A stretch of 64,000 bases of DNA, from the NCBI RefSeq assembly GCF_058153355.1, contig NZ_CM177019.1. One strand, written 5' to 3'. The notes under the pieces are model-generated. The model saw only the letters and a list, made by a program, of their open reading frames with translations, was not told where the DNA came from and ran no database searches. This document shows positions 56,291 to 56,322 of this stretch, one piece after another (the first letter of the stretch is position 1; every line of letters begins with the position of its first letter). Both the position numbers and the translations under genes were made by a program.

Positions 56291-56322
56291 AGCATAGTCC
56301 TTCCCCTTACGGGAAGGTCAAG
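56291..56322 (-). promoter_or_regulatory. MerR-type (CueR) promoter of cueO with 19-bp spacer and dyad operator
   Basis: Minus strand reads TTGACC-ttcccgtaaggggaaggac-TATGCT; the 19-nt spacer carries the inverted repeat CCTTCCC/GGGAAGG. Confidence 0.7.

Follow-up and report, generated by a model that had tools for sequence, protein, structure and literature searches.

The CueR-type promoter of cueO in a 64-kb segment of Escherichia coli DNA and its conservation in the Enterobacteriaceae

A work of Stoyanov from 2001 is said to be among those that established CueR- and copper-dependent activation by DNA distortion. Both copA and cueO are activated by CueR in this manner: the metal-free protein is a repressor, and Cu(I)-CueR introduces a kink and undertwisting at the dyad centre, which realigns the -35 and -10 hexamers for the sigma-70 holoenzyme (PMC5329002, PMC9909328, PMC8169799). 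The core recognised by CueR is CCTTCC-N7-GGAAGG (PMC8169799, PMC1526738); the bent 19-bp spacer was visualised by cryo-EM in 2021, and repositioning the box by a single bp inside the spacer of the copA promoter (PcopA) was reported to affect the geometry of CueR and RNA polymerase and to alter activation (PMC8169799). The CueR operator of the cueO promoter (PcueO) of strain K-12 is credited to Outten et al. 2000 and to Yamamoto and Ishihama 2005, as quoted in PMC1526738, PMC5329002 and PMC8169799. In Permina et al. 2006 a CueR site in a promoter with a 19-nt spacer was assigned to the yacC-yacK divergon (PMC1526738). A PcueO-lacZ fusion was reported to be induced by copper, and deletion of PcueO together with PcopA abolishes the CueR-DNA FRET signal inside the cell (PMC9396075, 2022). 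PcopA and PcueO are described as the only two targets of CueR in E. coli (PMC9396075); another source speaks of 'many' CueR operator sites (PMC4507017).

The window, i.e., the whole 64-kb stretch of DNA analysed here, is E. coli DNA. A 351-bp region of the locus was matched in 5424 of 5426 complete genomes, where the RefSeq annotation gives cueO and yacC. The cueO reading frame matches the NCBIfam equivalog NF008205 over its full length with 978 bits (cutoff 525, E 9.6e-295). The two genes are divergent, with their start codons 165 bp apart; speE follows after yacC, and gcd is located beyond cueO. The regulator gene cueR lies outside the window. In E. coli K-12 it is annotated (b0487) downstream of glsA-ybaT and beside copA, about 377 kb from the cueO locus. 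The features of the locus are as follows.

54695..56245, minus strand: cueO (formerly yacK), 516 aa, with the Tat signal MQRRDFLK... (ORF list, NF008205 and RefSeq annotation)
56252..56257, minus strand: Shine-Dalgarno-like AAGGAA, 6 nt 5' of the cueO ATG (read in the sequence)
56283..56285 (about 56284), minus strand: predicted cueO transcription start, about 7 nt past the -10 hexamer (from sigma-70 promoter geometry)
56296..56291, minus strand: -10 hexamer TATGCT of the cueO promoter (sequence and pattern match)
56315..56297, minus strand: spacer, exactly 19 nt (counted from the sequence)
56299-56317, no strand assigned: CueR operator, 19-bp dyad CCTTCCC-N5-GGGAAGG, centre 56308 (perfect 7-nt inverted repeat)
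56321..56316, minus strand: -35 hexamer TTGACC of the cueO promoter (read directly and pattern match)
56411..56758, plus strand: yacC, divergent neighbour, pilotin-like protein (NF037975, 196.8 bits, and annotation)

Read directly from the minus strand, positions 56291-56322 are C-TTGACC-TTCCCGTAAGGGGAAGGAC-TATGCT. An earlier note, made from the raw sequence, had described TTGACC, a 19-nt spacer and TATGCT on this strand, and all three are present at these positions. The -35 hexamer is near-consensus and the -10 hexamer is weak; the C that precedes TTGACC (56322) is invariant in other species. An inverted-repeat search returned two arms of 7 nt, at 56299-56305 and 56311-56317, which are 100% complementary and 5 nt apart. 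The note had placed the repeat CCTTCCC/GGGAAGG inside the spacer. The dyad is real and perfect, but it is not wholly contained there, as its promoter-upstream arm covers the final CC of TTGACC; the other arm stops 2 nt short of the -10 hexamer. The promoter spans 76-46 nt upstream of the cueO ATG, and with the start predicted from promoter geometry the cueO leader would be about 39 nt long. In the intergenic alignment the block ATAAGGAAAT around the Shine-Dalgarno-like site of cueO is kept across species.

The element is already known, being base for base the PcueO of K-12. Window and K-12 share the same 31 bp, the flanking genes, the 19-nt spacer and the CCTTCC-N7-GGAAGG core, and cueR is annotated in K-12. 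The 31-bp element is also identical in an O157:H7 strain and in three other E. coli strains, the latter sampled across the identity range. Among the six E. coli sequences aligned in all, only two columns of the intergenic region are variable, and the adjacent signal-peptide codons of cueO vary at many positions. A single intergenic base distinguishes the window from K-12, T for C at 56342 (approximately 20 nt 5' of the -35 hexamer), and the cueO signal-peptide codons of the window represent a rarer allele. The window allele of the 351-bp region is rare among E. coli records (identity of at least 99% in only 22 of 5431). Its differences from other strains fall mostly in the cueO signal-peptide codons (56150-56245) and to a small extent in yacC codons; positions 56246-56410 are almost invariant.

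The element is almost certainly the CueR-dependent promoter of E. coli cueO, a canonical target of CueR alongside copA. The earlier note had proposed a MerR-type CueR promoter before cueO, and this reading is backed by the identity of the gene (NF008205), the published core, the register of PcopA and the presence of the site in 79 of 80 species. The assignment made here rests on these points and on the anatomy of the site; binding, copper induction and distortion are taken from the literature. The features of a CueR operator that were found comprise the two hexamers with a 19-bp spacer, the core dyad, the PcopA register, a copper-homeostasis gene, conservation in orthologues, and cueR in K-12. 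No feature of the sequence speaks against a CueR promoter. A spacer of 19-20 bp with a dyad is common to all metal-sensing MerR promoters (PMC1526738, PMC9909328), and a paralogue of CueR in Salmonella has a site of the CueR type (PMC1526738); both points would also fit an operator at which ZntR, SoxR, a GolS-like paralogue or some other MerR-family protein acts in place of CueR. However, the half-sites are the exact CueR core, as in PcopA, the regulated gene encodes a copper oxidase (NF008205), and cueO is assigned to CueR in the literature (PMC5329002, PMC9909328, PMC9396075, PMC8169799). A different regulator is therefore regarded as very improbable.

Since the architecture is shared, the structures of PcopA may be applied to PcueO, and CueR would then act on the cueO promoter as follows. 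With a spacer of 19 bp, the hexamers are separated by about 2 bp too many for the RNA polymerase holoenzyme and do not have the right phase for it. A dimer of CueR would occupy the dyad CCTTCCC-N5-GGGAAGG and fill the spacer. In the metal-free state it would hold the DNA in a repressed conformation, and binding of Cu(I), Ag(I) or Au(I) would cause it to kink and undertwist the centre of the dyad. The spacer would thereby be shortened and re-phased, so that sigma region 4 and region 2 could contact the -35 and -10 hexamers together, and transcription would be turned on for the periplasmic multicopper oxidase CueO.

A standard promoter scan with spacers of 16-18 nt reported no site in 56000-56700, as the 19-nt spacer is over-long for it. 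A custom scan with spacers of 15-21 nt recovered the site with a spacer of 19 and hexamer matches of 9/12. The same scan offered the pairing TTGACC-16-GACTAT, which was dropped because the GACTAT hexamer is not conserved in other genera. The motif scan that had been suggested beforehand as a check found the exact core CCTTCC-N7-GGAAGG, with 0 mismatches, as a single occurrence in the 64-kb window. The hexamer pair TTGACC/TATGCT with at most one mismatch was seen once, compared with 0.30 expected per window, and is thus little proof by itself. When up to 3 mismatches were tolerated, the composite pattern TTGACCTTCC-N7-GGAAGG-NN-TANNNT had a single match in the window, and none of 100 dinucleotide-preserving shuffles of the window contained it. 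Another seven sites, at 11310, 13919, 24259, 24419, 26818, 30393 and 55212, match CCTTCC-N7-GGAAGG with 2 mismatches. Core matches with at most 2 mismatches therefore number 8 in the window, compared with 1.95 expected and a maximum of 7 in the shuffles (n=100); the extra ones are probably a compositional or codon effect.

For the comparison across species, the cueO loci of 80 Enterobacteriaceae species (CueO identity 74-97%) were collected by a protein-anchored scan. A promoter of the TTGACC-19-TAWGCT type with a CueR box is present in 79 of the 80 when mismatches are allowed; the earlier note had named lack of conservation of the dyad in the cueO promoters of related species as one result that would speak against it, and the dyad was found in these same 79. 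The -35 hexamer of the 79 orthologous promoters is TTGACC in 77 and TTGACG in 2, the spacer measures 19 nt in every one of them, and TATGCT (39) and TAAGCT (38) together account for 77/79 of the -10 hexamers. The element lies 5' of cueO in all 79 promoters, 60-72 nt from the ATG. With the -35 hexamer as the anchor, the mean information content is 1.65 bits/position in the 31-nt block versus 0.68 and 0.75 in the 25-nt flanks, and the promoter block is a conservation island. Judged by the exact core CCTTCC-N7-GGAAGG, which occurs in just 12 of the 80 species (Escherichia, several Citrobacter, and some Raoultella, Klebsiella and Enterobacter loci), the site had seemed poorly conserved, a view overturned by the count of 79 with mismatches allowed. 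In the usual departure from the core, one A of the promoter-downstream half-site is replaced by G.

These data also bear on the possibility of a chance resemblance, i.e., an ordinary intergenic inverted repeat beside hexamer-like words and with no regulatory role. The 0.30 hexamer pairs expected per window and the seven other 2-mismatch core dyads are in keeping with it. The composite pattern, however, is absent from all 100 shuffles, the published core and the PcopA register are matched exactly, and block, spacer length and position are kept in 79 of the 80 species while the flanks diverge. The conservation test already refutes chance resemblance, to which only a negligible probability is given.

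Among 73 unique sequences, pairs 1, 2, 4 and 6 of the dyad are complementary in 71-73. Pair 3/17 is T:A in 19 and T:G in 53, and is seldom complementary because most genera have GGGAGGG and not GGGAAGG in the promoter-downstream half-site. Pair 8/12 is G:G in 66 of the 73, and changes at pair 5/15 are for the most part uncompensated. Perfect 7-bp arms are confined to Escherichia, Citrobacter and one Enterobacter sp. locus. With pair 3/17 complementary in just 19/73, the perfect 7-bp symmetry of E. coli is not itself the conserved feature. As judged from the aligned sequences, the hexamers, the spacer length and the half-sites are shown to be under purifying selection. The constrained features according to the 80-species comparison are the CTTGACC context, a spacer of exactly 19 nt, the CCTTCC half-site, G..AGG in the other half-site, and a TAWGCT -10 hexamer.

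The pattern of pairing is relevant to a further reading, in which the dyad works at the RNA level, as the hairpin of a terminator or leader, and not as a protein-binding site on the DNA. A G+C-rich stem of 7 bp with a 5-nt loop could form in RNA. The dyad is, however, placed between the two hexamers of the promoter and precedes the predicted cueO start, which leaves it outside the cueO mRNA. A T-run is missing after it on both strands, and the terminator scan was silent on the dyad. The absence of covariation at pairs 3/17, 8/12 and 5/15 fits recognition of half-sites by a protein and not an RNA stem, and the hairpin is accorded scarcely any probability.

Intestinirhabdus alba was the sole exception among the 80 species, with no CueR-like box within 1.5 kb of cueO. 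At its locus (L081) the region 5' of cueO is rearranged and yacC is absent upstream. Immediately next to the ribosome-binding site of cueO is a 267-bp element (1217-1483) bounded by terminal inverted repeats of 25 nt. Further upstream are repeats that we take to resemble ERIC, and the upstream gene was found by eye to resemble that of a methyl-accepting chemotaxis protein.

The earlier note had also held that the same spacer region serves the divergent yacC. This part was not upheld: no promoter directed toward yacC is found on the dyad, the conserved yacC-side element lies about 65-70 bp away, and yacC is missing from the i-modulon file discussed below. No plus strand hexamer pair with a spacer of 15-21 nt overlaps 56299-56317 in the direction of yacC, and scans over these spacers likewise found no mer-type second promoter with hexamers overlapping the dyad on the opposite strand. 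The custom scan returned one promoter-like site on the plus strand of the intergenic region:

core 56373-56381, island 56370-56384, plus strand: candidate extended -10 TGCTAACGT (TGnTAACGT geometry), yacC promoter (custom scan and conservation)

Some 74 of 79 Enterobacteriaceae sequences carry this block almost unchanged, and it forms a second conservation island, apart from the CueR block. It is probably the promoter of yacC (or of yacC-speED), in which case the centre of the dyad (56308) would lie near -80, outside the core promoter. Two other candidates for a promoter directed toward yacC were rejected. TTGAGC (56288-56293) and GGTCAA/TCAAGC flanking the dyad, taken as a yacC -35 hexamer on the plus strand, have no -10-like partner at any spacing. 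A sigma-E-like arrangement of GGAAGGT as -35 and TCAAC as -10, compared by eye with the consensus, fails on its spacing of 21 nt. Two copies of the palindrome AACGTT are present between the genes, one at the predicted cueO start (56284-56289) and the other in the yacC-side block (56377-56382), in the similar contexts CAACGTTTGA and TAACGTTTAT. The pair is likely a coincidence, as the first copy is not conserved outside Escherichia.

A CueR dyad shared with yacC or yacC-speED, in the way that the MerR operator serves merR and merT in Tn21/Tn501, would suit the divergent arrangement of the genes (165 bp between start codons), which is kept in 78 of the 80 species, and the name 'yacC-yacK divergon' given to the locus by Permina et al. 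(PMC1526738). It would also suit the distances from the dyad centre to the yacC-side block, which are 63/64 bp in 55 species, 73-75 bp in 14 and 84 bp in 1 (loci L008-L087), roughly whole helical turns. These steps of approximately 10 bp, however, represent very few indel events among related genera, and the clusters may therefore mean nothing. In the PRECISE i-modulon supplement, yacC-speED is listed as one operon, and the i-modulon file gives copA, cusCFBA, cusRS and cueO as the Copper i-modulon, with yacC absent from that file (PMC6892915). PMC9396075 names PcopA and PcueO as the only E. coli targets of CueR, and the literature search returned no link between yacC and copper apart from the divergon remark. 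A mer-type system has as its divergent gene either the regulator or a gene that responds to the same metal; here yacC encodes a pilotin-like protein, cueR is located elsewhere, and, as indirect evidence, yacC is not part of the Copper i-modulon in the file. Together with the position of the dyad near -80 relative to TGCTAACGT, this renders shared control of yacC very unlikely. A modulation of the yacC(-speED) promoter by CueR, bound at the cueO operator and acting from about -80 via bending or undertwisting, is likewise very unlikely, although the conserved divergon and the stepped distances give a little room for such a long-range or topological coupling; if true, it would link copper stress to the expression of a pilotin-like protein or to spermidine synthesis.

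As a discovery the element carries little weight, since PcueO is one of the two textbook targets of CueR and its architecture has been in the literature since 2000. A tool-free reading of the raw sequence nevertheless found a real regulatory element and the right family of regulator.

For the comparison with the copA operator, which the earlier note had recommended, the copA promoter query had a 100% match in 5334 E. coli records, directly 5' of annotated copA. Aligned in register, PcueO and PcopA have CTTGACCTTCCC...GGAAGG..TA..CT in common and are identical at 23 of 32 positions. They share the CTTGACC context of the -35 hexamer, the 19-bp spacer and the CCTTCC-N7-GGAAGG core, and the offset of the dyad from both hexamers is identical, the dyad starting at the last two bases of TTGACC. 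The central 7 nt are CGTAAGG in PcueO and CCTTGCT in PcopA, the -10 hexamer is TATGCT in the former and TAACCT in the latter, and the perfect arms of the dyad measure 7 nt in cueO but 6 nt in copA. The crystal and cryo-EM structures and the footprints are those of PcopA and not of PcueO. The mer operator-promoter (Tn21/Tn501, merR/merTPAD) differs from PcueO in the sequence of the half-sites and in the metal. The merR promoter of mer is divergent and overlaps the operator, whereas PcueO has no overlapping divergent promoter and its divergent gene, yacC, is not a regulator. Like PcueO, the mer operator-promoter is a sigma-70 promoter with a 19-bp spacer that carries a dyad and is controlled by distortion of the DNA (PMC1526738, PMC9909328).
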